The translations under genes and the position numbers were made by a program. From NCBI GenBank assembly GCA_963675745.2, contig CAXXWX010000004.1, forward strand, positions 1-64,000: a stretch of DNA of 64,000 bases, in the 5' to 3' direction. This DNA comes from Phycisphaerae bacterium (lineage in GTDB: Bacteria; Planctomycetota; Phycisphaerae; UBA1845; Fen-1342). Positions within the stretch are counted from its first letter, which is position 1, and each line of letters begins with the position of its first letter. Below are positions 381 through 12,906 of this stretch, piece after piece. Below the pieces are notes generated by a model that searched no databases, was not told where the DNA came from, and saw nothing but the letters and a program-made list of their open reading frames with translations.

Positions 381-1504
381 ATGGACGTGATCAACCAGGC
401 AGGTGACCGCATCAGCGAGTACATCCTCGAGGAGTGCGTCGGGGCCGGTACGTTCGGCGAGGTCTGGCGGGCGCGGCATCAACGTCTGGGACAGCGAGCG
501 CGTCGCGATCAAGCTGCCGATCGAGCCGGAGTACGTGCGTTATCCTGCAGCGCGAGGGTGTGGTCGTACACGGTCTGCGGCATCCCAACATTATCAAGCG
601 TGCTCGGGCTGGATCCGTATGCGGACCGAAGCCGTACCTGGTGATGGAACTGGTCGAGGGGCCGTCGCTGCAGGCAGGTGCATTAACGAGCATCTGAACG
701 GCGATGCCGATCGATGCTGGCAAAACGTGATTCTGCGCGGGGCTGTTGACGCGCTGGTCATCGCCGCATGCCCATGCCGGCAACGTTATCCATCGCGATC
801 ATCAAGCCGGGCAACGTGATGCTGCACCTGGCCCAAATGCCGATCGAGCCGCTGGCGGAACTCACGATCGAAGATGTCAAAGTCGGTGACTTTGGGCTTG
901 GGCGATCGGCGACGCCGACACGTTGCGCTCGATGATCGAGCAATCGGCCTCGATCGAGCGTGACCACGAGAGCACGGCGCTGGCCGGTACGCTGGCCTAC
1001 ATGGCGCCCGGAGCTGCGTGATGGCGGCCAGATGAAGCCCAGCCCGCGAAGAGCGATCTATATCGCGCTGGGGGTGATGTCTGTTTGAGACTGCTGACCG
1101 GTGAACGCGCCCGGCTGGGGCGGAGCTTGCCGAGCACGGTTGCGGGCCGATGTGCCTGCCGCCCTGGACGAGATCTTTCGGGCGTCTGTACGCCCGGCTA
1201 CGATCGACGTTACGAGAGCGCCGAGGCTGTGCTGGGAGAATTCGAGAGTCTCACGCAGACGGCCGGCATTCCGCCCGTCCCGCCGGTCGCCCCCGGGCGG
1301 CCCGGCGCAGCCGTCGGCGGACACGTGCGCCGGTGCCCGGATTGCGGGGGTGGCGTGGAGCCGCAAGACCAGTTTTGCACGCAGTGTGGGTACCAACTGG
1401 TCCCCACGGTTCGGCGTTGTCCCGCGTGTGGTGCCTATCCGGCCCCGGAGAACCGCTTCTGTATCTTCTGCGGCGCTGCCCTCCCGACGCGCGAGGAGGC
1501 GTAG
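381..1504 (+). CDS. Hanks-type Ser/Thr protein kinase with C-terminal double zinc ribbon (many apparent frameshifts)
   Basis: Kinase motifs pieced together across frames: GAGTFGEVW, VAIK, LRHPNII, YLVMELVEG, IHRD.IKPGNVM, VKVGDFGL, GTLAYMAP. Then a Pro-rich linker and CPDCG..FCTQCG..CPACG..FCIFCG. Confidence 0.85.
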
Positions 1505-1807
1505 GTGATGGTGCTTGCGGACACGGGCATCCTGGTGCTGTTTGTCGCCCTGTTTGTGCTGGGCATCTTCGGTTTCCTGGTGATGGGGTTTATGCTGCTG
1601 GTGCGCCTGTTGGGCTGGTTTCTGCGCACGGTTTTCGGCGCGGGCCGCGGGCGGCCGCGGCCGGTGGCGCGCGTACGTCGCCCAGGCGCGGCGCGGCGCC
1701 CCTGCCCCTTGCCGGGTTGCTCTCACGCTAACCCGCCGGAGGCTAGTTACTGCGGCGGGTGCGGCCGTATGATCCGAGCCGCGGATGAAGTGGACGCCTA
1801 TGGATGA
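1505..1807 (+). CDS. Small membrane protein with C-terminal zinc ribbon
   Basis: Long hydrophobic N-terminus, then CPLPGC..NPPEASYCGGCG; its stop overlaps the start of the next gene. Confidence 0.8.
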   Translation: MMVLADTGILVLFVALFVLGIFGFLVMGFMLLVRLLGWFLRTVFGAGRGRPRPVARVRRPGAARRPCPLPGCSHANPPEASYCGGCGRMIRAADEVDAYG

Positions 1808-3253
1808 GCGCAGTCGACATCGCGAGTTTGAGGATCAGTTCCTCAGCCAGTTGAAGGCCCGTGCGCGGCAACTCGTGGCGGGGCAATTGCCTGCGCGCCA
1901 GGTCACGGTGGAAGCGCTGCCCGACGGCGATGACTCGGTGCGGGACCAGCTCGCGCGGCTGGAGGTGTTCGAGCGCGACGTGCTGGAGAGCATGCCAGGC
2001 CGCCAGGCGCTGCAACTGTGCTTTCGGCGCCCGGTTTTCGGCGGGTTGTACCACACGACGGTTGCCCGTGTGCGCGCCCAGTCGCTGGTCTCGGTTGAGA
2101 TGCTGGTCGACGACCAAGTGCCCGGTCCGGTGGGGCGCGAACAGGTGCTGGACGCGATGGCCCGCTACGAACTCCTGCCGCACAAGCACAAGCCATCCGC
2201 GGTAGTCTTCGCGAGTGCAACGGGATTCACTCCTGAGGCCAAGAGCCTGGTGGAGGGCGACGGGCCGCCGACGCTCATCCTCATGGGTGGCCGCGCGGAC
2301 GGTGGCTGGGACGTCGCGATGTCCGAGCGGCTGCGCAAGAGTCCGTGGGGCAAGCTTTTCGAGCTGGAGACACAGGATGAGCGCCTCAGGCGTTTCATGC
2401 GGCATCTCGACGCACAGGGCCTGGAGCTGGATTCGCGCGGCTTGGCGGTTTCGCGGCTGGCCGAGCAGCTTGGTTTGCCTGAAACTAAGACCGAGGCGCT
2501 GGTGCGTCAGGCGTGCCGACAGGATCCGCGCTTGATGACCGTTGTACACGAGGGGACGATCCACATCTGCCGTAGTCCGCTGGGCAGCGAGGGTAAGCCC
2601 ATGAGCATCTGGAGTCGTATTCTGAGACTCTTCGGCCGCAAGCCGTCGGCGTCTGAACGCGTGCGCGTATTGACTGAACAGCGTGTGCGCCTGGAGCAGG
2701 AGCGCTCGTCGATCGACAAGCACGTCGATACGCTGGAGACCCAGGAGCGTGATCTGCTACAGCAGGGTGCCCAGGCTCCCAGCGACGCCGAGAAGAAACA
2801 GATCGCCGCCAAGCTGGTCCGCGCGCGCCGCGAGCTGAAGCGACATCGCACGCGCGCCCAGATGTTTAACCAGCAGATCGACGTGCTGGGCACGCAGATC
2901 CACCATGTAACGCTGACCGAGCAGAGCAAGCAGGTGGCGCTGCCGACGTCGGAGGAGCTGGCCCAACAGGCGGCTGAAGCCGAGAAGGTGATGACCGATC
3001 TCGCCGCCAGCGCTGATCTGGCCGGCAATATCGAGGTCGGCGCGTCGTCGCCGATGATGGTCAGGAGGAAGAGGCGGCGATTTTCGCGGAGTTTGAGCAG
3101 GTTGCGAAGCATGGGGCTGATGCGAAATCCTCCACGTCGGCCGACGAATCAGCGCCCGAGGCAGGCTCTTCCGCCACAGACGCACAGGCGAGCGGCGAAG
3201 CCGTGCCGCCTCCGCCGAACAAGGACAAGACTGCCAAGCCCGAACCAGGTTGA
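1800..3253 (+). CDS. Hybrid protein: restriction-endonuclease-like fold + winged helix + ESCRT-III/Snf7-like domain (frameshift near 3060)
   Basis: VVFASATGFTPEA (Mrr-like strand/helix); GLAVSRLAEQLGLPETKTEALV (wHTH-like); then MSIWSRILRLFGRK amphipathic helix and a long coiled-coil hairpin. Shifting frame near 3060 gives QEEEAAIFAEFEQVAK and an acidic/Pro tail ending at TGA 3251-3253. Confidence 0.7.
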
Positions 3254-3273: not shown

Positions 3274-3885
3274 ATGAACTTCTTTACCTGGCTGACCACG
3301 AAGCGCAAGACGCTCGCGACGATGAGCGTATCTGAATTGCGTGCCCAGGAAATGCTCATGCAGAATGAGCGTGACCGGCTGTACGCGAAGATGCAGAAGC
3401 TGGCCAAGGACAAGCAGAAAATCGTCGAGCGCGGCGCCAAGGAGCGCACGCCCGAGATGCGTCGCACCATGGCGCAGCAATTCGACCTGCAACACACCGA
3501 GCAGATGATGGTCGCTCGGCACCTCAATATTCGCAGCAAGGAGCTCTTGACCGTTTCGCGCCTGCGCATGCTGCGCGAGAACGCGCAACGCACCGGCGCT
3601 GCGAGCGGCGCGATGGCCGCGATCCGACAGCAGGATCTCACCCTGATCGAGAAGCTCATCGAAGATGAGCAGGTCACGATGGACATGTATCAGGAGCGGC
3701 TTGATGAGATTCTGCAGGTCGGGCACGCGGCGGACGAGGCGGCGTCCAGCGGTGTGTCGCCGGCGGCGGAAGAGCTGCTCAAGGTCTGGGGAGACATGGA
3801 CGCCGGGCTAATCAAGAACACCGACGACGCCGTCGATGAGGCCGAGCGCCGCGTGCGCGAGCGTGACCGAGCGGCCGATGCCTGA
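3274..3885 (+). CDS. ESCRT-III/Snf7/PspA-superfamily-like coiled-coil protein (about 203 aa)
   Basis: N-terminal MNFFTWL amphipathic motif, basic helical N-half, acidic C-half (SPAAEELLKVW); size and context fit. Confidence 0.65.
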   Translation: MNFFTWLTTKRKTLATMSVSELRAQEMLMQNERDRLYAKMQKLAKDKQKIVERGAKERTPEMRRTMAQQFDLQHTEQMMVARHLNIRSKELLTVSRLRMLRENAQRTGAASGAMAAIRQQDLTLIEKLIEDEQVTMDMYQERLDEILQVGHAADEAASSGVSPAAEELLKVWGDMDAGLIKNTDDAVDEAERRVRERDRAADA

Positions 3886-3887
3886 CC

Positions 3888-4940
3888 GTGCGCCGTCGAA
3901 ACGAAATGGGATCATGCCCGGACATGCTGTCAGCCGTGATCGACGCCAGGCGCACACGCCGCGCGTCCATCATGGTGGCGTGCGCCGTCACGCTGCTGCC
4001 GCTGGCGGTTGCCGAGGCCGGTGATTTGCCCGCGCGCCCGCGGATCCCGCGCATTGACGATGCGCGCGCCGCCCGCATGTACGTGCTGGTTGGGCGCCTT
4101 AATGACGCGGTTGGCGAGCGCACCTACGGAGCCGCCAGACAGAGGCGCCAGGATTTGGCCGCGGCCGTCAGCGCCGGCGACGCGCTGATGCTGTCGGCGT
4201 TGGGTGATGCGATCGTAGGGTTGGATCGGCGCTACCGGTCAGCCGGTGAGCGGGGCGCGCATCGCGAACGAGCCCGGCATGATGCCTGTCAGAGCCACCT
4301 GGTGAACGTGCTCACGCGCGTGCCCGGCTGTGCGTCGCAGGTTGAGGAGATCTGTGCGCGGCCTGACGTTTCGGCGCGATTGCGGCGTGAACTGCTATCG
4401 GCACTGCTGCACAGCGTTGACAGCGGCCAGGTGCAGGTATCGCCGGAGCAGATGGCGGGTTTGTATGCGCGCGCGGCATGTCACGGAGACCATCGCGTGC
4501 TGATGATTGGGTTGCGGGCGCTGGCTGGATCGGCGGAAGGGGGGTACGAGTGCCGGCCGCCACTGGATCGCGCGACGGCGGTGGCGCTGCTGCGCGTGTT
4601 GGCGGAGGACCGTAGCGAGTCGTTCGTTGACCGCGAGCCTTACCTGCGGGTGTTGTGTACGATTGGTGAGGCGCGGGAGTCTTATTTCGCTGAGTATCTT
4701 CACGCGGTTGCCGACTACAGCCGTTCGCCGCATGCGCGGCGGGTGTATATCCACAACTTGCGTCACTGGCGGCGATTAAGTGGTAAACAGGCCGCGATGC
4801 TCGATTGGATGCTGGCTGGTGATGTGGAATGGTTGCGATCGCCGACGACAACTGCTCTGCGGGCCCTGTCGGGGCACGCGTCGGCGCACGATAATCAGCG
4901 TGACGAGTCCGCGGCCGCGAAGATCGAATCACCGCCTTGA
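3888..4940 (+). CDS. Hypothetical helical protein, possibly secreted (start uncertain)
   Basis: 350-codon ORF filling the gap; signal-peptide-like MVACAVTLLPLAVAEA; no recognised motif. Confidence 0.5.
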   Translation: MRRRNEMGSCPDMLSAVIDARRTRRASIMVACAVTLLPLAVAEAGDLPARPRIPRIDDARAARMYVLVGRLNDAVGERTYGAARQRRQDLAAAVSAGDALMLSALGDAIVGLDRRYRSAGERGAHRERARHDACQSHLVNVLTRVPGCASQVEEICARPDVSARLRRELLSALLHSVDSGQVQVSPEQMAGLYARAACHGDHRVLMIGLRALAGSAEGGYECRPPLDRATAVALLRVLAEDRSESFVDREPYLRVLCTIGEARESYFAEYLHAVADYSRSPHARRVYIHNLRHWRRLSGKQAAMLDWMLAGDVEWLRSPTTTALRALSGHASAHDNQRDESAAAKIESPP

Positions 4941-5022: not shown

Positions 5023-5628
5023 ATGGGATTGTTCAAATCGAAGGAAGAACGCCGTATCGAACGCGACATCAAGATTCGCCAGGGCATCCGGCGGATCGAG
5101 AAAGCGATCTCCGAGCAGAACAAGTTCTCCGACGAGTTCGTCAAGAACGCCCGGCAGGCCAAGCAGATCGGTGACACGCAGTCGTACCAGTTCATACGTA
5201 ACTCGCTGAAGAAGACGGCGACGATCAAGCGGATGCTCGAACGGCAGTTACTGGCGGTGAAGAACGCCCTACTGATCAAGCGGCAGGCCGAGGCCAGCGC
5301 TGATTTCGCGGGGGCGATGGGGCTGATGGCGAGTGAGGTTTCAAAGCTCTACGGCGACACGGACCTGGTCAAGACGCAGATGGACTGGGAAAAGGCGATG
5401 ATGCAGTCGCAAACGATGGAAGAGCGGATGGCGATGTTCCTCGACGGCATGGAGGACTCGGCCGCGGCGGACGTATCCTCCGCCGCCGAGCCGGTCAGCG
5501 ACGAAGAGATCGACCGCATGATCGAAGCCGAATCCCAAGTCGAGGAAGCCCGCGAGTCAGCCCAAATGACGGATCTGCGGGCGGAGTTGGCGAAGTTGAA
5601 GGGGGAGGGTGAGAAGGAAGGGAAGTAG
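5023..5628 (+). CDS. ESCRT-III-like protein (Vps2/Vps24/Did2/CdvB-like) with C-terminal MIM1-like motif
   Basis: MGLFKSKEE start, basic hairpin, Met-rich helices (MDWEKAMMQSQTMEERMAMF), acidic VSDEEIDRMI, terminal DLRAELAKLK; GAGG SD upstream. Confidence 0.8.
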   Translation: MGLFKSKEERRIERDIKIRQGIRRIEKAISEQNKFSDEFVKNARQAKQIGDTQSYQFIRNSLKKTATIKRMLERQLLAVKNALLIKRQAEASADFAGAMGLMASEVSKLYGDTDLVKTQMDWEKAMMQSQTMEERMAMFLDGMEDSAAADVSSAAEPVSDEEIDRMIEAESQVEEARESAQMTDLRAELAKLKGEGEKEGK

Positions 5629-5674
5629 GCTGGCAAGTGCTTTGCTTCAGTGAGCAGTGTAAGGACGATAGGTC

Positions 5675-6802
5675 ATGGCCAAGCTGGACAAACTCACCAT
5701 CCGCGGCTTTAAGTCGATTGCCGAGCTCAAGGACTTCGAGCTCGGGAATCTGACGGTGCTCATTGGCGCCAACGGTGCCGGCAAGTCGAACTTCGTCCAG
5801 TTCTTCAGCATGTTGCGGGCGATGTCGTATGAGGGGTTGAACGCATTCATTCTGAGGAACGGCGGCGCGGACAACTTCCTGTTCAACGGGCCGAAGTTCA
5901 CGAGTCAGATTGCGGCGCGACTCGAGTTCGCGCGTGATGCATACACGGATACTTATACATTCGCACTGCGGCCCACCGCCGATGACGGCGTCATGTTTCA
6001 GCATGAGGGCGTTGGGGTCACGGACGGAAGCGGCAACCATCGAGCCAGCCCGATCAGCAAAGGTGCTCGCGAATCCGCGCTGCCGGCGAGCATCAAAGCC
6101 CTCGACGATTCGAGTCGCGAGCAATCCGGAGTACACCACGCTTTGGAGGCGATCCTGGGATGCAGGACGTACCACTTCCACGACACGAGCAGCCTCGCGT
6201 GGGTACGCCGCTATCAGCCGACCCAGGACGTTGATCCGTTCAGGGAGGATGGATCGAATCTCGCCGCCTATCTCCTCGACCTACGTATCACACGACCGGC
6301 AACCTATGAGCTGGTCCGCGACACGATTCGCCTCGTCGCGCCGTTTTTCAACGACTTCGAACTCAAGCCAACGGAGAATGGAGGAGACCCGGTCGTCAAC
6401 CTCGATTGGCGGCAGCGCGGTAACGACTTTCTATTCCGCCCCAGCCAGCTTTCTGACGGCACGCTGCGCTTTGCGTGCCTGGCAACTGCGCTGATGCAGC
6501 CGGAGCCCCCGGCGTGCATTGTGCTGGACGAGCCGGAACTCGGGCTGCACCCTTACGCCATCGCGATAATCGGCGACCTGATCAGGAACGCGGCAAAATG
6601 CACCCAGGTGATCGTGGCCACGCAATCCCCCCAGTTGCTGGACCGTACTGAGCCAAGCGAGGTTGTTGTGGTCAGCCGAGACAACGGACGGTCCACGTTC
6701 AAACGACTGGACGAGGGCGAGCTGGACAACTGGCTCGATGAGTACTCGTTGGGCGAGCTCTGGAGGAAGGGCGTGGTTCAAGGGGGGCCGATGCATGAGT
6801 AG
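5675..6802 (+). CDS. ABC-type AAA_21/AAA_15 family ATPase
   Basis: IRGFKSI, Walker A GANGAGKSN, signature LSDGTLRF, Walker B LDEPELGLHP, ATQSP, C-terminal SLGELW. Confidence 0.92.
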   Translation: MAKLDKLTIRGFKSIAELKDFELGNLTVLIGANGAGKSNFVQFFSMLRAMSYEGLNAFILRNGGADNFLFNGPKFTSQIAARLEFARDAYTDTYTFALRPTADDGVMFQHEGVGVTDGSGNHRASPISKGARESALPASIKALDDSSREQSGVHHALEAILGCRTYHFHDTSSLAWVRRYQPTQDVDPFREDGSNLAAYLLDLRITRPATYELVRDTIRLVAPFFNDFELKPTENGGDPVVNLDWRQRGNDFLFRPSQLSDGTLRFACLATALMQPEPPACIVLDEPELGLHPYAIAIIGDLIRNAAKCTQVIVATQSPQLLDRTEPSEVVVVSRDNGRSTFKRLDEGELDNWLDEYSLGELWRKGVVQGGPMHE

Positions 6803-7515
6803 GATTGCGGTACTCGTGGAGGGAGAGACCGAACAGAAGTTCGTCAACCATCTCGTACGACCGCACCTATGGAGTTGTGGGGTTGATATCTTTGCGAGGC
6901 TTCCCGGACGTCAGGTGCGCCGTGGCGGCACGCGTTCATGGGAGTCAGTGCGTGGAGATGTCGTTCGGACGCTGAAGGGGCGCGGCGCCTATCGTTGCGC
7001 GATCATGCTCGACTACTATCGACTCCCTCACGGCTGGCCGGGGCGCCGCGACGCAATGAAGCATGTACCTGAGAAACGGGCACGCGTCGTGGAGAGCGCC
7101 CTCCAGGCAAGTGTCACCGAATCGATCGGAGGCGATTTACGGCCTGGCATGTTTCTCCCCTACATCCAGCTCCATGAGTTCGAGGCACTGCTATTCAGTG
7201 ATACGTCCAAGCTGGCCCACGCAATAGCATCGGCGCCTGTTCACAAACCTGTCGACGAGTTGATCGTGGCGGAACGGCTCGCGCAGATCCTCGAGCCATT
7301 CGGAGACCCCGAGCTAATCAATGACGGGCCGCACACGGCCCCGTCCAAGCGGATCCTTGATGTGGCGCCGTATTACGACAAGGCGACTATGGGACCGATT
7401 GTCGCCGAGAGGATTGGATTGCAGGACCATTCGCCAACACTGCAGCCACTTTGATGAGTGGTTAACCGCACTGGAACGGACGGCCGAACGAGATCCTCAA
7501 GAGCCCACGGCCTGA
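6795..7515 (+). CDS. DUF4276 family protein (TOPRIM-like), frameshift near 7425
   Basis: VLVEGETEQ.FV, LDYY, QLHEFEALLF, PELINDG..TAPSKRI. The typical tail TIRQHCSHFDEWL lies in another frame ending at 7515. Overlaps the ATPase stop. Confidence 0.85.
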
Positions 7516-7531
7516 GTAGCACTGAGAACTG

Positions 7532-8654
7532 ATGCCAACCTTCGCCACATTCAAACGACTCAAGGACAAAGGCGTGGCCGCCTACCAGCAGGGGGACTAC
7601 GTCGCCGCGCGGCCGTATTTGATCCAGGCCGCCGAGTGCATGATCGAGATCGCCGGCGAAAACCGGGATGGCGCGGCGCGCGCGGAGCAGGAGGCGTATG
7701 CCCGCGAGCTGATCGACCTGGCCAAGGAGTGCGACCGCCGCGTCGCGCATGGCGAGGGCAAGGGCCGGCCGAAGACGGAACGGGCCAAGGATGAAGACGG
7801 CGGCGCCGATCCGTCCGACTGGATCGTCCGTGACAAGCCGAACATCCGCTTCGACGACATCGCCGGCCTTGAAGACGTCAAGCAGGAAATCCACCTGAAG
7901 ATGATCTACCCGTTCCGGCACCCGGAGCTGGCCCAGCGCTACGGCGTGGATGTCGGCGGCGGCATGCTGCTGTTTGGCCCGCCCGGAACCGGTAAGACGA
8001 TGATCGCCAAAGCGATCGCGTGCGAGCTTGACGCGACCATGTTCGTGATCACGCCGGCCCCAGCTCATGAGCAAATGGGTCGGCGAAGCCGAACAGAATG
8101 TGCGTAAGTTATTCGAGGCGGCCAAGGCCGAACAACGCAGCGTGATCTTCTTTGACGAAGTCGAGGCCCTGGTGCCGAAGCGCCGCGGACAGCAATCGAC
8201 GGTCATGCAACGCGTCGTGCCGCAGATCTTGCAGGAGCTGGAGGGATTCGATCGTCAGGCGGGCCGCGCGCTGATGTTCCTTGGCGCCACCAACGAGCCC
8301 TGGGCGCTGGATGCGGCGATGATGCGGCCCGGGCGGTTGGATGCCAGGGTCTACGTGCCGCTACCCGATGCCGAGGCCCGCTTCAGGCTGTTCGAAATCG
8401 GGTTGGGCCAACGTCCGCTCGATGACGACGTCAATCTGGCCCGGCTGGTCGAACTGACAGCGGGATACAGCGGCGCCGACATCAAGGCTATCGCCGAGCG
8501 TTCGGCAACGCGTCCGTTTTTGGAATCGGTAGGGGGGGCGGAACCGCGTAATATCAATATGGCTGATCTGCTCGCGGTGATTGAATCGACCGCGCCATCC
8601 GTGACGCGCGCGGATTGCCAGAAGTATGAGCAGTGGGCCCTGAGCCAGCGTTAG
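7532..8654 (+). CDS. Vps4-like AAA+ ATPase with N-terminal MIT-like domain (frameshift near 8060)
   Basis: N-terminal three-helix region (KGVAAYQQGDYVAARPYLIQAAE..), IVRDKPNIRFDDIAGLEDVK, GPPGTGKT, SKWVGE pore loop, IFFDEVE, GATNEPWALD, GYSGADI, terminal PSVTRADCQKYEQW helix; a single AAA module. Confidence 0.85.
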
Positions 8655-8740
8655 CGTGGTTTGGACGCGAGGAGTATCGCGCGTCGCGCCGTTGTCTGTC
8701 GTAGAGTGTAACGGCCGGCGCCGAACGTGTTTGGCCTGTA

Positions 8741-8869
8741 ACGGCCTGCGAGGCGCAGGCCGCTACGGTGCCGTGTGTACGAATCGGCCGCCGGCGTAAG
8801 GAAGCACGTTTGTTCATCGACGGCCTGCGAGGCGCAGGCCGCTACGGTGCCGTGTGTGCGAATCGGCCG
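8741..8869. repeat. Two direct copies (8741-8790, 8820-8869) of a 50-bp unit containing a REP-like hairpin
   Basis: ACGGCCTGCGAGGCGCAGGCCGCTACGGTGCCGTGTGT(A/G)CGAATCGGCCG twice; stem GGCCTGCG-AGG-CGCAGGCC. Confidence 0.85.
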
Positions 8870-8917: not shown

Positions 8918-9255
8918 ATGCGCCAGACCGCAAAGCCGGACGTCGCTCGGGCGATACCGTGTCCGCACCCCGCGGTGTGACGAGCTGAATGCGCCCGCGG
9001 CCGCGCTTCTGCGCGCGTTGCGGCCATCCGCTTGGTCCGCACGCAGATGCGCTGGTGGCCGAAGCATCCGCCAGCAACTGGTGGGCGGGCGTGTGGATGC
9101 TGATTATCTCTTGCGCGGCGTTCATCGTCATCAGCCGGGGTGGGCGGCGTGATGTTTGGGTTTATCGCGTTTGGTGTCGGCGTGCCGGTTGCGACGATCC
9201 TTGCGCGCCGTCAGCGCTGATCAGGGCCGCCGCTTCCGGCGGAGTGTCGAGATGA
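8918..9255 (+). CDS. Small zinc-ribbon membrane protein (frameshifted)
   Basis: Strong SD GAGGAGG before ATG 8918; reconstructed CPHPRC.ELNAPAARFCARCGHPL followed by a hydrophobic segment; ATGA overlap with the next gene. Confidence 0.65.
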
Positions 9256-11022
9256 GTGATGAGATCCTGAGACAACTTCGCGACGCAACACTCGTGGCCT
9301 GGGTGCTACCCGGCGAAGCGTGGCCGCGGTCTTTGATGTCGAGCACGTTGGTTCCGGCGCATTGGGTGGCGCTTGTCGAGCGGGCCCGGCGGGCAGCGGC
9401 GTCTCGTTCCCGCCGGCGATGATCCCAAACCAGAGCGTGGCGACCGGCTGTTGCTGGTGCGTAGCCGCCCGGTATCGGTTCCGCTGGCCGCTGTTGGTCA
9501 GCGCGCGTCTGATGAGCACCTGGTGAGTGCCCGGGCCGAGATGCGCGTGAGTTGGGAGCCGCACGAACACAACCTCGGCGCGCTGCTGAAATGGCTCGCC
9601 GGTGAGCCGGAACTGCGCGTGGACCGGCTGGCGCGCGCGATTGCTGAAGGCGGCGCGGCGCGCGCACTGCGTGACTTCATCCGCGCGCACGAGGCCGCCG
9701 CGCTGTGCGACACCGATTGGACGGTGGCCGTGGCGCAGGCCCTCGCCGTAGGCCTGAAGCGGCTGGTGTTTGACAGCGGGCTCACGATCGATCGAGTCAC
9801 CGGTCTGGCGTTCACGAGTGAGACGCTCGCGCGGCAGGATCGGCTCAAGCGCGAGACGGCGCAACGCGTTGAGCGCATCCGCGCCCGCGAACAGGTTGAA
9901 GAGGCCGCCGCCGCCGCCGCACATAAGCGGCTTGACGACCTCGGCGGGCTGCTGGAGAAGCTCAAGGGGGCCGCGGCCGACGATACGGACCTGCGCTGGC
10001 ACGATCTGCTGCCCTCGCTAACGCCCGGCGAACGTACACGGTTGCTCGAGAACCTGTGGCGAATCACACCCGATCAGTGCATCGCCGACCAGATCGTGGC
10101 GGTTGCCGGCCACGAGTGCCTCTGGCTGGAGCCGACGAATCCGGCGGAGCTGGGACGGCGCGTACGGCTGGCCGATGATCTGGGGCCGCTGCGCTCGATC
10201 CGCCACGACGCCGATGAGCGCAGATTGCTGATCGGTGCGGCCCTCGGCGTGTGGGTGCTGGACGCTGATGATGGTGGTGTTGTCGAGTGTTACCGCGCCG
10301 CGTGCGACAAACAGCCGCGCACTGGCTTCAACGCGGCGGGCGTTGTCGGCCAGCTACTGTTTGCCACGCACTCGGAACTGGGTTGCTGGATGTGGCCGGT
10401 GGACGAACCGCGGGGCGGCACTGCCCTGTTGGTCCCCGCCAATGGCGTACCGGGAGCGATTCGCGCGCTTGTCGCGACCAACGACGGGCGCGTGGCGTTT
10501 TCCGCAGATGCCGGCGTGCACCTGTACACTCCACAAACTGAAATGACAGATGTGCTGGGACCGTTTGGCGGGACCATCCAGAGCCTGGCGGTGCTTGGAA
10601 CACAGCTTTACGCGGGAACCACTGATGGCCACGTGTTGCGAGTGGACCTCGAGCCGATCGGCGGCACATGCGTGACCGTTCATCGCACATTCACTTCGAT
10701 TGAGTCGATTCATGCCCGGCGGTGGAACGACCTGGTCGAGGTTGTGATTCCCGCCGGCGATCTTGGCGTGTGTGGCGTCTTTGGCGAGGAAGCCGCGGTG
10801 ACGCGCCTGCTCGACGCGCCGATGTCGATTCGCCGGGCGTGGGCTTGCGACGACCTGATTGTGGCTCTCAGTGAGCGGCGTGATCGGTTGCTGGTGCTGC
10901 ACGCGGCCCTGCCCGGCCGGCACGTGCGCGAGGCGCCGGTTTCGCGTCTGGTGGGGCACTCCATTCAGGACGCCTGCCTGGTAACGCGTGATGTTGAGCG
11001 CGTTGGCGAGACGCCTGCATGA
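9252..11022 (+). CDS. SPFH/band-7-like N-terminal region + coiled coil + beta-propeller (frameshift near 9385)
   Basis: MSDEIL.. start joins the 9373-11022 frame; SPFH-like end (GLTIDRVTGLAF) then a charged coiled coil; C-half of repeated beta-strand blades (IRALVATNDGRVAFS, IQSLAVLGTQLYAGTTDG). Confidence 0.6.
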
Positions 11023-11142
11023 TGCGGCGGCGCGGGGCAGTTCATTACCTCGCGTAGTCTTCCGATTCCGTTGCACTGGCCGGGGGCGGTGGTTACGATG
11101 ATACAAGGCTGAAGTGGATCTATGCGTTCAAGGGGTCCTGGT

Positions 11143-11964
11143 ATGCGCCAGCATGCACGCCGGTCGTCCGCGGGGTTTACGCTGATCGAGTTGCTGGTGG
11201 TTGTCGCGATAATCGCTGTACTGATCGCGATATTGCTGCCATCGCTGGGTCAGGCGCGGGCCCAGAGCAAGATGGTGGTGTGCGGGACGAATTTGCGGCA
11301 AATCGGCTTGGGCATCCACGCCTATGCGAACGAGGCCGACGGGTTGATCCCGCGCGGCCCTGATCCGGTCCACCCATACGATTTTGCGTCGAACATCATC
11401 ATGACGAACCAGTTGTGGATCGGGACGGGCCTCGATGGCCCTCCGACGCTGCACCCACGCCAGCACATCGGCCTTGGCTCGCTTTACGCGACGGTTGCGC
11501 CGGAGCCGAAGCTGTATTGGTGCCCCGCCGATGACAGCCGCAGCCAGGCTACCGAGCTGCCCCAGATCGGCACGGACCATGATTCGTACGGATCGTACTA
11601 CTACCGTCAACTGGATCACCTGCCGGAAAGCAACGCGCGGGGGTTGCTGGATCGGCTGGGTGTGAACGTGATTGGCGAGGACGAGATTCCGGTTGCCGTG
11701 CAGGCTCTGGCTCTGGACGCCAACTCGTTGGGCGCCGGCGTATTCTGGCGCACGAATCACCGCGCCAAGCACGCCAACGTGCTGTTCGTCGATGGTAGCG
11801 TACAGCGCTATGCGAGCCGCGACGAGTCACTGGCAATTCCGGCCGCCGCGTATGACAACAACATGGCGTTTCTCCTGCGGTACATCGACCAGCTTCTCAC
11901 CAACGCCGACTATTCCTTGCGCGGGCAGCCTTGGGAGGCCCCGCGCATCACCGGGTTACCATAG
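11143..11964 (+). CDS. Prepilin-type N-terminal cleavage/methylation, H-X9-DG (DUF1559-like) protein
   Basis: [26 protein letters not shown]-terminal [13 protein letters not shown]. Confidence 0.92.
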
Positions 11965-12000
11965 AGCCGTTGACCGGCGCCACCAACGGAGGGACGTGTT

Positions 12001-12906
12001 ATGACACGGTTGCGATCGGGATTCACATTGATCGAGTTGTTGGTCGTCGTCGCGATCATCGCGCTGCTGATTGCGATTCTCCTGCCGTCGCTGTCTGGTG
12101 CGCGCGAGCAAACGCGTACCGTCGTATGCCTGTCGAACATGCGTCAATTGTCGCACGGCTGGCACATGTACGCCGACGACAACAATGACACGTGCCTGCC
12201 GGGGCGCTACGCGAAGTTCTCGGGTGGCACGTCGAACCCGGCTAATTACTACGATATCGGCAACGGCACGAAGTACCGGCCGCGCTGGATCGCCACGATG
12301 GGCGGGTACGTTGGCCTGCCCGCCTGGAGTAACCCGATTCCCGAGGATGATCGGCAGGACTACGACGGCAAGGTCTACCAGTGCCCGAAGGTGCCCAATT
12401 GGACCGACACACGCAACCACTGCTACGGCTACAACCACCAGTTTCTGGGTAACGCGCGCAAGACCAACGGGAAGTACCACAATTACCCGGTCAACCGCTC
12501 GCGCCTGTCGACCTTCGCGGGGACCGTGATGGCCACTGATTGCCTGGGGACCGCGGCCGGCGTGCCCAAAAGCGAACGGCAGCCGTACTCCAACGATGGC
12601 AAGGCGATGGAAGCCAAGGGCAACCACGGCTGGACGCTCGATCCACCGCGCCTGTCAGATCGCTCAGACCGCGGCACCGGCGATGCCGGCTCGCTCCGTA
12701 CGGCGCCGGATGCGCGTCACCGCGGCCGCACCAACGCGCTGTTCTGTGACGGTCACGCCCGTTCGGCGACGGTTTATGAGCTGGGTTACCGCGTGCTGGA
12801 TGACGGGCAGTTCATTGACCTGGAACCGACCGAGGACGACCCCCCGCTCAACAACCTGTTCTGCGGTTTCGGCGGCGATCGCGACGCCCCGCCTCTGCCA
12901 GAGTAG
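12001..12906 (+). CDS. Prepilin-type N-terminal cleavage/methylation, H-X9-DG (DUF1559-like) protein
   Basis: [28 protein letters not shown]. Confidence 0.92.
   Translation: MTRLRSGFTLIELLVVVAIIALLIAILLPSLSGAREQTRTVVCLSNMRQLSHGWHMYADDNNDTCLPGRYAKFSGGTSNPANYYDIGNGTKYRPRWIATMGGYVGLPAWSNPIPEDDRQDYDGKVYQCPKVPNWTDTRNHCYGYNHQFLGNARKTNGKYHNYPVNRSRLSTFAGTVMATDCLGTAAGVPKSERQPYSNDGKAMEAKGNHGWTLDPPRLSDRSDRGTGDAGSLRTAPDARHRGRTNALFCDGHARSATVYELGYRVLDDGQFIDLEPTEDDPPLNNLFCGFGGDRDAPPLPE

Follow-up and report, generated by a model that had tools for sequence, protein, structure and literature searches.

A MIM1-like helix near the C-terminus of a bacterial ESCRT-III-like protein and its putative partner, the MIT-like head of a Vps4-like ATPase from the same operon

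The question raised by this locus is whether a bacterium encodes an ESCRT-III-like protein that is docked through a C-terminal helix onto the MIT domain of a Vps4-like ATPase, in the manner of the eukaryotic MIM1 motifs. The window, i.e., the whole stretch of DNA analyzed here (64,000 nucleotides from a Phycisphaerae bacterium), encodes in this order a zinc-ribbon kinase, a small membrane protein, a hybrid protein (E1), a second helical-hairpin protein (E2), an inserted ORF, the ESCRT-III-like protein (E3), two inserted genes, an ATPase and a conserved downstream gene (Table 1). In our judgment the strictly conserved helix of E3 probably, though far from certainly, docks this CHMP2/3-like subunit, in the type-1 (MIM1) mode, onto the MIT head of the Vps4-like ATPase encoded in the same operon.

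Table 1. Features of the locus, with positions in the window
Feature	Positions	Strand	Basis, occurrence and remarks
Ser/Thr-kinase-like gene with C-terminal double zinc ribbon	381..1504	+	zinc-ribbon Pfam; kinase motifs by eye across frames; 58 of best 80 loci
Small membrane protein with zinc ribbon	1505..1807	+	BLAST match in 28 of best 80 loci
Hybrid gene E1: N-terminal domain and helical-hairpin half, variable acidic Pro-rich tail	1785..3253	+	65 of best 80 loci; assembly error at 3060
E2, second helical-hairpin gene, related to hybrid C-half	3274..3885	+	72 of best 80 loci
E3, ESCRT-III-like gene, CHMP3/CHMP2A-like, 201 aa	5023..5628	+	profile matches, Pfam Snf7, 80 orthologue loci (best 80 of 114)
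Conserved acidic helix of E3 upstream of the motif, probably ESCRT-III helix 5	5494..5532	+	
MIM1-like amphipathic helix M182-K193 of E3 (predicted)	5566..5601	+	includes 5572-5601; helix from residue pattern
Codon starts of the E3 motif	L185 5575, E188 5584, L189 5587, L192 5596, K193 5599		
Vps4/CdvC-like single-module AAA+ ATPase	7532..8654	+	Pfam AAA; Vps4_C above cut-off; apparent frameshift at 8058 due to an assembly error
MIT-like three-helix bundle of the ATPase	7532..7747	+	E35 (7634), Q53, E54 (7691), I61, D62, K65 (7724), D68
Conserved downstream gene, true start probably near 9253	9373..11022	+	33 of best 80 loci, always behind the ATPase

The sequence DLRAELAKLK is the translation of bases 5572-5601 and comprises residues 184-193 of E3. 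The original prediction had placed it at the very end of the protein; the sequence is real, but eight residues follow it and it is only near-terminal. The same prediction had read it as a MIM1 with a single substitution, Glu for the conserved Arg. The hydrophobic spacing LxxxLxxL, the final basic residue (K193), and the Glu in place of Arg are all present near the C-terminus of E3, but the motif departs from the consensus at two positions and not at one. Residues were compared in 116 tail-MIT pairs, namely that of the window, 61 from the initial 80 loci, and 54 that were left once redundancy had been removed from 103 loci added later; for position counts, 22 pairs lacking the register of leucines spaced by four and three residues (21 from the sister clade and one truncated) were left out, giving 94. 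The residue ahead of the second Leu is Glu in 53/53 own-clade orthologues and Arg or Lys in 16/94 family pairs. The first MIM1 position, where D/E is expected three residues ahead of the first Leu, is occupied by Met182, is never acidic in the own clade (M/L/I in 53/53), and is acidic in 50/94 family pairs; a hydrophobic residue at this position has a reported precedent in F352 of IST1 (PMC4475061). The Asp that opens DLRAELAKLK stands at position −1 and is Ala in 34/53 own-clade orthologues.

The motif is strictly conserved in the clade to which the window belongs. Within the last 30 aa, LxxELxxL[KR] was found in 53/53 own-clade and 0/27 sister-clade E3 orthologues (the best 80 of 114 loci); L185, L189, L192 and K193 are kept throughout the 53, and six motif positions are invariant in these orthologues of 67-86% identity while the flanking residues vary. 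E188 is invariant across all 80 tails of the two clades (again the best 80 of 114 loci). In all 27 tails of the sister clade the third Leu and the Lys are missing, and the LxxxLxxL spacing is not kept. LxxELxxL[KR] is present in 119/120 of the closest database matches listed for E3. Among 4201 crudely called ORFs of the same genome it occurs in the last 25 aa of one, namely E3, and the looser LxxxLxxL[KR] in those of 17.

Tails of the wider family typically read DxxIxxGLxxI. Near-canonical MIM1 tails, [DE]xx[LIVM]xx[RK][LIM]xx[LIM][KR], occur in 12/116 tail-MIT pairs, 11 of them from one planctomycete lineage and one Clostridia-like, and as far as sequence comparison goes they are the best evidence that the terminal helix of the E3 family is a MIM1 homologue. 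For type-1 docking in bacteria, the lineage that carries them would serve as the best positive control offered by nature. It comprises loci L113, L114, L144, L145, L155, L158, L160-L162, L165 and L166, and has Glu at MIT residue 65 in 11/11. Because two consensus positions are not matched, we do not file the motif of E3 as a strict MIM1; most likely it is a new MIM1 variant that resembles MIM1 in its working.

Homology of E3 to ESCRT-III proteins emerges in sequence searches only with a broad profile. The window's E3 by itself gave E=0.9 against ESCRT-III, PDB searches with E3 alone or with its close alignment returned no matches, Pfam assigned no significant family to the window's own E1, E2 and E3, and Pfam Snf7 had no match over 21 related genomes. 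With the family profile (56 sequences including distant members), the PDB matches were to CHMP3 (E=1.6e-5, positions 13-164), CHMP2A (E=7.9e-5) and Snf7 (E=1.3e-3), and also to CdvB2 and CHMP1B. Pfam Snf7 was matched by 9/56 family members (best E=1.1e-7), and the family profile thus relates E3 to CHMP/Snf7 proteins over helices 1-4. In the acidic helix upstream of the motif, D160, E162, I163, D164, R165 and I167 are invariant or nearly so. A PspA-type identity of E3 was weighed with what we take to be the terminal helix pattern of PspA and was rejected: there was no PspA/Vipp1 in 20 PDB matches at E<=10 and no PspA_IM30 in the 56 members at E<=0.01. Some distant proteins have an E3-like domain in other contexts, fused to a C-terminal P-loop domain that is FtsK-like by eye (P0252, P0268, P0269) or behind a 220-aa N-terminal domain (P0192, P0195).

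It had been proposed that the paralogues of the operon are specialized like the Vps2/24 and Snf7 classes of ESCRT-III. For E3 the Vps2/24 class does give the best profile match, CHMP3 and CHMP2A being ahead of Snf7 by one to two orders of E-value. For the hybrid and E2 the Snf7 class is not established, their matches being weak or absent. The profile of the hybrid C-terminal half gave CdvB (E=0.12) and CHMP4B (E=0.52), the E2 profile gave no ESCRT-III match in the PDB at E<=5, and Pfam Snf7 at E<=0.01 was found in none of 38 and 52 members of the two families. E2 is related to the hybrid C-half (probability 77%, E=2e-5), whereas its profile match to E3 has a probability of only 2.4%. The two halves of the hybrid are separate genes in other Planctomycetota classes, and the N-terminal domain (1785-2585) is kept across the phylum as a separate gene. 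Its profile gave winged-helix-like matches (E 0.3-0.9) and one Pfam match to an inactive restriction nuclease (E=0.009). These matches hint weakly at a winged helix behind an inactive restriction-nuclease fold, an arrangement that would echo ESCRT-II.

The hybrid had also been described as ending in an acidic, loosely MIM2-like tail with AVPPPP. This sequence is present at 3200-3217, but only after the frame change, and it is not conserved, being found in 0/65 orthologues; the MIM2 pattern (L/I)Px(V/L/I)P occurs in 2/65. We therefore rejected a MIM2 in the hybrid, whose linker is simply Pro-rich (14%) and acidic. The conserved parts of the hybrid tail are an upstream helix with hydrophobic-x-x-E-hydrophobic (61/65) and a terminal PE-x(x) end (44/65).

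The assembly was checked against short-read contigs from runs X1 and X2, which are one sample, possibly the source itself, and so not independent. In the contigs across 5495-6392 and 5499-7424 the motif is unchanged. Two bases at 3060 in the hybrid and one base at 8058 in the ATPase are missing from the contigs, which identifies both frameshifts as assembly errors. Single extra bases at 7424, 8968-9137 and 9382 are likewise absent from the contigs, and the assembly thus has many indel errors. The kinase gene shows several frame changes at 381-1230, where contig cover is poor.

From 114 confirmed loci the scan for E3 retained the best 80, of which almost all are labeled as Planctomycetota or Phycisphaerae. 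E3 is present in 18/21 close relatives and in 68/401 genomes sampled from the phylum. An ATPase gene lies within 8 kb downstream of E3 in 40 of the best 80 loci, with an E3-ATPase gap of 22 to 2875 nt across these 40, and this variability suggests an insertion hot spot. In the sister clade (L054-L080) the ATPase is encoded elsewhere in 25/27 genomes, in two of them without its N-terminal part. In 40 regions from other families, the ATPase usually comes after E3, often immediately so, and a second MIT-like ATPase often lies upstream. Loci of other Planctomycetota classes within L108-L146 (e.g., L110, L119, L126, L134) have upstream of E3 another, divergent ATPase whose helical head is similar, and two E2-like genes. 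Clostridia-named homologues of E3 exist as well, and the E3 of that subfamily lies directly 5' of such an ATPase in 5/8 metagenome loci; the order in L173-L177 is a zinc-ribbon protein (SPFH-like by eye), an E2-like gene, E3 and the ATPase. A scan of viral contigs found no relatives.

Several other features of the neighborhood were observed. The insertion at 3888-4940 is a 350-aa ORF without a match in the 80 orthologue loci, and that at 5675-7454 is a pair of an AAA_21 ATPase and a DUF4276 protein, which looks like a defence or toxin-antitoxin module. Behind the ATPase, at about 8740-8860, there are two copies of a short GC-rich repeated element; peaks of contig depth and loose ends at 8815-8851 suggest many copies of it elsewhere. 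The conserved downstream gene had no match in Pfam or NCBIfam. It is followed at 11122-12906 by two adjoining genes that by eye have type IV pilin-like N-terminal methylation motifs typical of planctomycetes.

The best NCBIfam model for an intact orthologue of the ATPase (L007) is CdvC over residues 13-369, with a score of 241 against a cut-off of 650, while CDC48 is the best model for the ATPases of L122 and L175, and the top PDB matches are to two-module Cdc48/p97. In architecture the ATPase agrees with Vps4/CdvC as delimited in the description of PMC10936438, having a MIT head, one AAA module and a C-terminal helix, and adjoining an ESCRT-III gene. The pore-loop-1 motif SKWVGE is present in 59/61 sequences, and the three-arginine collar is absent from pore loop 2 of the orthologues.

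The first 72 residues of the ATPase were modeled as three helices (4-19, 23-43 and 47-71; pLDDT 96.7), and MIT domains account for 8 of its 9 top structural matches. The head superposes on the VPS4A MIT domain (Z 12.3, rmsd 1.3, 70 aligned), on that of yeast Vps4 (Z 11.2, rmsd 1.7, 72 aligned, residues 1-72 on 4-75 without gaps), and on MITD1 (Z 12.3-12.5) as an asymmetric three-helix bundle of about 70 residues. For a helical bundle, Z values under 13 do not settle the matter by themselves, and the TPR of AIP ties with the MIT domains (Z 12.1), so that the fold by itself would also suit a TPR fragment. Foldseek E-values were all above 0.07, Pfam MIT (PF04212) was found in 1/62 head sequences (E=0.022), and the Atlas look-alikes PF04212 (0.89) and KATNA1_MIT (0.88) serve as leads only. 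With the MIT alignment as profile, the search of the PDB returned weak matches to designed proteins and TPRs, and also 2mpk (E=0.21), which we take to be a MIT domain. The superpositions on VPS4A and yeast Vps4 bear out the prediction that the neighboring ATPase carries a MIT-like head.

The contacts reported for Vps4 with MIM1 are Y34, L37, D38, M41, R57, L64, A67, E68 and K71, and in Vta1-Did2 acids of helix 3 are described as the partners of the central MIM1 Arg, and an acid of helix 2 as that of the final Arg (PMC5141497). With the offset of 3 given by the 72-on-72 superposition, the corresponding residues of the ATPase are I31, A34, E35, I38, E54, I61, A64, K65 and D68. The register of helix 3 is fixed, both superpositions ending at 72 = 75; the helix-2 contact numbers are, we assume, those of the yeast protein. 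In the superposition, Lys65 occupies the position of Vps4 Glu68, the acid partner of the MIM1 Arg. This residue is Lys/Arg in 41/41 own-clade pairs, and with Glu188 standing for the MIM1 Arg both halves of that pair appear reversed. The acidic residue expected to face the final Lys is retained (E/D35 in 41/41), and position 62, the second partner of the MIM1 Arg in Vta1-Did2 as described (PMC5141497), is still acidic in 35/41 own-clade pairs, beside E188.

The original prediction had also supposed a co-evolved MIT surface. Basic residues at tail position +3, that of E188 (n=16, three separate origins), face an acidic residue 65 in 12 pairs, a neutral one in 4 and a basic one in none. Acidic +3 residues face a basic 65 in 42/46, 41 of these being own-clade pairs; outside the own clade this is so in 1/5 (L183), the others facing Asp (L124), Glu (L176, L177) and Gln (L140). 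In the Clostridia-like loci L173-L177, Lys and Glu alternate at tail +3. Lys/Arg65 is also found opposite a neutral +3 in 25/32, which makes Lys65 the family default, predating the Glu. At the final position, a basic +8 faces an acidic 35 in 61/63 and a basic 35 in none, and an acidic −3 goes with Arg/Lys53 in 49/50, as compared with 4/44 for a non-acidic −3. Tests on independent pairs (3-5 pairs each) were not significant, and no independent pair of acidic +3 with basic 65 was in the expected direction. The net charge of MIT helices 2-3 is anticorrelated with tail charge (rho −0.75), and an unrelated control segment of E3 gave rho −0.67; independent contrasts on net charge (114 rows; L128 and L146 dropped) gave r=−0.17, p=0.13. 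The raw anticorrelation was accordingly rejected as evidence of co-evolution, being mostly phylogeny. The part of the prediction that stands is the Lys/Arg at the Vps4 Glu68 position in all own-clade pairs, and co-evolution as such is not shown. The data fit neighboring positions that avoid a clash of like charges, and do not show a reciprocal swap. From these comparisons the 'swap' is best read as a Glu that was tolerated, and then fixed, opposite a Lys already in the family.

In the docking that we favor, L185, L189 and L192 would sit in the groove between helices 2 and 3, against I31/A34/I38 and I61/A64. As in eukaryotes, E35 would be the partner of K193; E188 would pair with K65, the reverse of the eukaryotic Arg-Glu68 pair, and M182 would take the place of the first acid where the family's conserved Arg53 is lost. 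By analogy with eukaryotic and archaeal systems, E3 would most likely co-polymerize on the membrane with E1 and E2, the docked ATPase hexamer would then pull subunits from the membrane-bound filament, and the kinase may regulate this E3/ATPase cycle. In support of docking, the genome of the window has one copy each of the E3 and ATPase genes.

The helix could instead bind the MIT head in another register or mode, i.e., one turn earlier, in the groove of helices 1 and 3, or antiparallel; we consider this unlikely, though it has specific points in its favor. One turn earlier, R186 would stand at the first MIM1 position opposite E54, E188 would not be the equivalent of the Arg, and the swap would be that of R186 and E54. 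The tails of L140, L115 and L143 align the sister-clade helix to the wider family in this way, with 186 at −3 and 188 at −1. Residue 186 is Arg in 53/53 own-clade and Glu/Asp in 27/27 sister-clade E3 proteins, and MIT residue 54 (equal to Vps4 Arg57) is Glu in 37/41 own-clade and Arg in 17/21 sister-clade pairs; this contrast, however, is a single clade split. At least seven binding modes are reported for MIT domains (PMC9477494), and helix 1 of the ATPase, too, is strongly conserved within clades. Against the shifted register, it puts a Lys at a core hydrophobic position of the own-clade tail and leaves the tail without a third hydrophobe, and it does not explain why L192 and K193 are invariant (53/53). 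The latter is why, although the alignments suggest a one-turn slip in descent, we prefer binding in the 4-3 Leu register.

Still less likely, in our view, is that the helix is no MIT ligand but an internal element (a hairpin fold-back or filament contact) or a binder of another product of the operon, the ATPase being recruited by another tail such as the terminal helix of E2. Amphipathic helices in general show such a spacing of Leu (LxxxLxxL is found in the last 25 aa of 108/4201 ORFs), E2 has its own conserved terminal motif (52/72), and the co-variation of tail and MIT is not significant on the tree. Yet the helix stands at the place of MIM1, past helix 5 and C-terminal in a CHMP2/3-like protein, relatives carry the near-canonical MIM1, and no pair of the operon is more constant than E3 with the ATPase behind it, which is kept even where no E2 gene was detected (e.g., L110, L111, L113, L118, L121). 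That the motif is a chance pattern without function is highly improbable, for although it has only ten residues and differs at two of six consensus positions, the invariance of six positions in 53/53 amid varying neighbors largely refutes it.

A wider reading of type-1 docking is conceivable, and we put it forward as doubtful. [quoted passage not shown] Fission of Phycisphaerae is reported to proceed without FtsZ by a mechanism not yet known (PMC6952346), which makes the operon a testable candidate for division, and the system has a cultured carrier in Phycisphaerae bacterium RAS1. The patchy spread (68/401) argues against a phylum-wide role in division. As one tail position is naturally Arg, Gly or Glu, the MIT-MIM charge code lends itself to direct testing with short peptides.

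A Vps4-like regulator was described as seemingly absent in bacteria (Williams and Low 2025, PMC7619361) and two-gene systems as confined to archaea and eukaryotes (Makarova et al. 2024, PMC10936438). In the literature covered, mostly papers available without subscription, no description of a bacterial ESCRT-III/MIT-ATPase operon was found. A CHMP2/3-like protein that occurs in bacteria, bears a MIM1-type tail and has a cognate MIT ATPase would run counter to this published view, and MIM1 docking, described as an Asgard-eukaryote feature (PMC7240154), would gain a third, divergent branch.

Among known bacterial systems, PspA/Vipp1 shares with E3 membership in the ESCRT-III superfamily, but the E3 profile has no PspA match and PspA is described as having no Vps4 partner (PMC7619361). 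The bacterial ATPases with MIT and Vps4-AAA domains of Ravi et al. (2024; PMC11237479), found also in Planctomycetes, share the Vps4-like ATPase with MIT; by their description, snf7 is displaced there by a TPR-6TM gene, whereas here a soluble CHMP2/3-like gene is the constant neighbor. With the crenarchaeal CdvB/CdvC and the euryarchaeal 'main clade' (PMC10936438) the locus shares CdvC as best full-length model and an ESCRT-III gene upstream of the ATPase, and the main-clade loci are reported also to encode Ser/Thr kinases, as this one does. In contrast, CdvB uses MIM2 and is said to be without MIM1 (PMC7240154), the CdvC score of 241 is far below the cut-off of 650, and no CdvA gene was seen on inspection. 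Asgard ESCRT-III (Vps2/24/46) and Vps4 as described (PMC7240154) share several hairpin genes, a Leu-rich MIM1-like terminal helix and a MIT-AAA ATPase in a prokaryotic operon; the present locus differs in having no conserved MIM2-type partner and no three-arginine collar, and in having kinase and zinc-ribbon genes. The eukaryotic MIM1 proteins (Vps2/CHMP2, Did2/CHMP1 and IST1 on the MIT domains of Vps4, Vta1 or ULK3) share the 4-3 Leu C-terminal helix, the final basic residue, the CHMP2/3-like carrier, the MIT-like fold of the partner and the acid at the Asp38 position. The E3 tail, which is bacterial and known from sequence, differs in Glu for Arg and Met for the first acid, and its ATPase has Glu, Lys and Asp where the eukaryotic Vps4 MIT has R57, E68 and K71.
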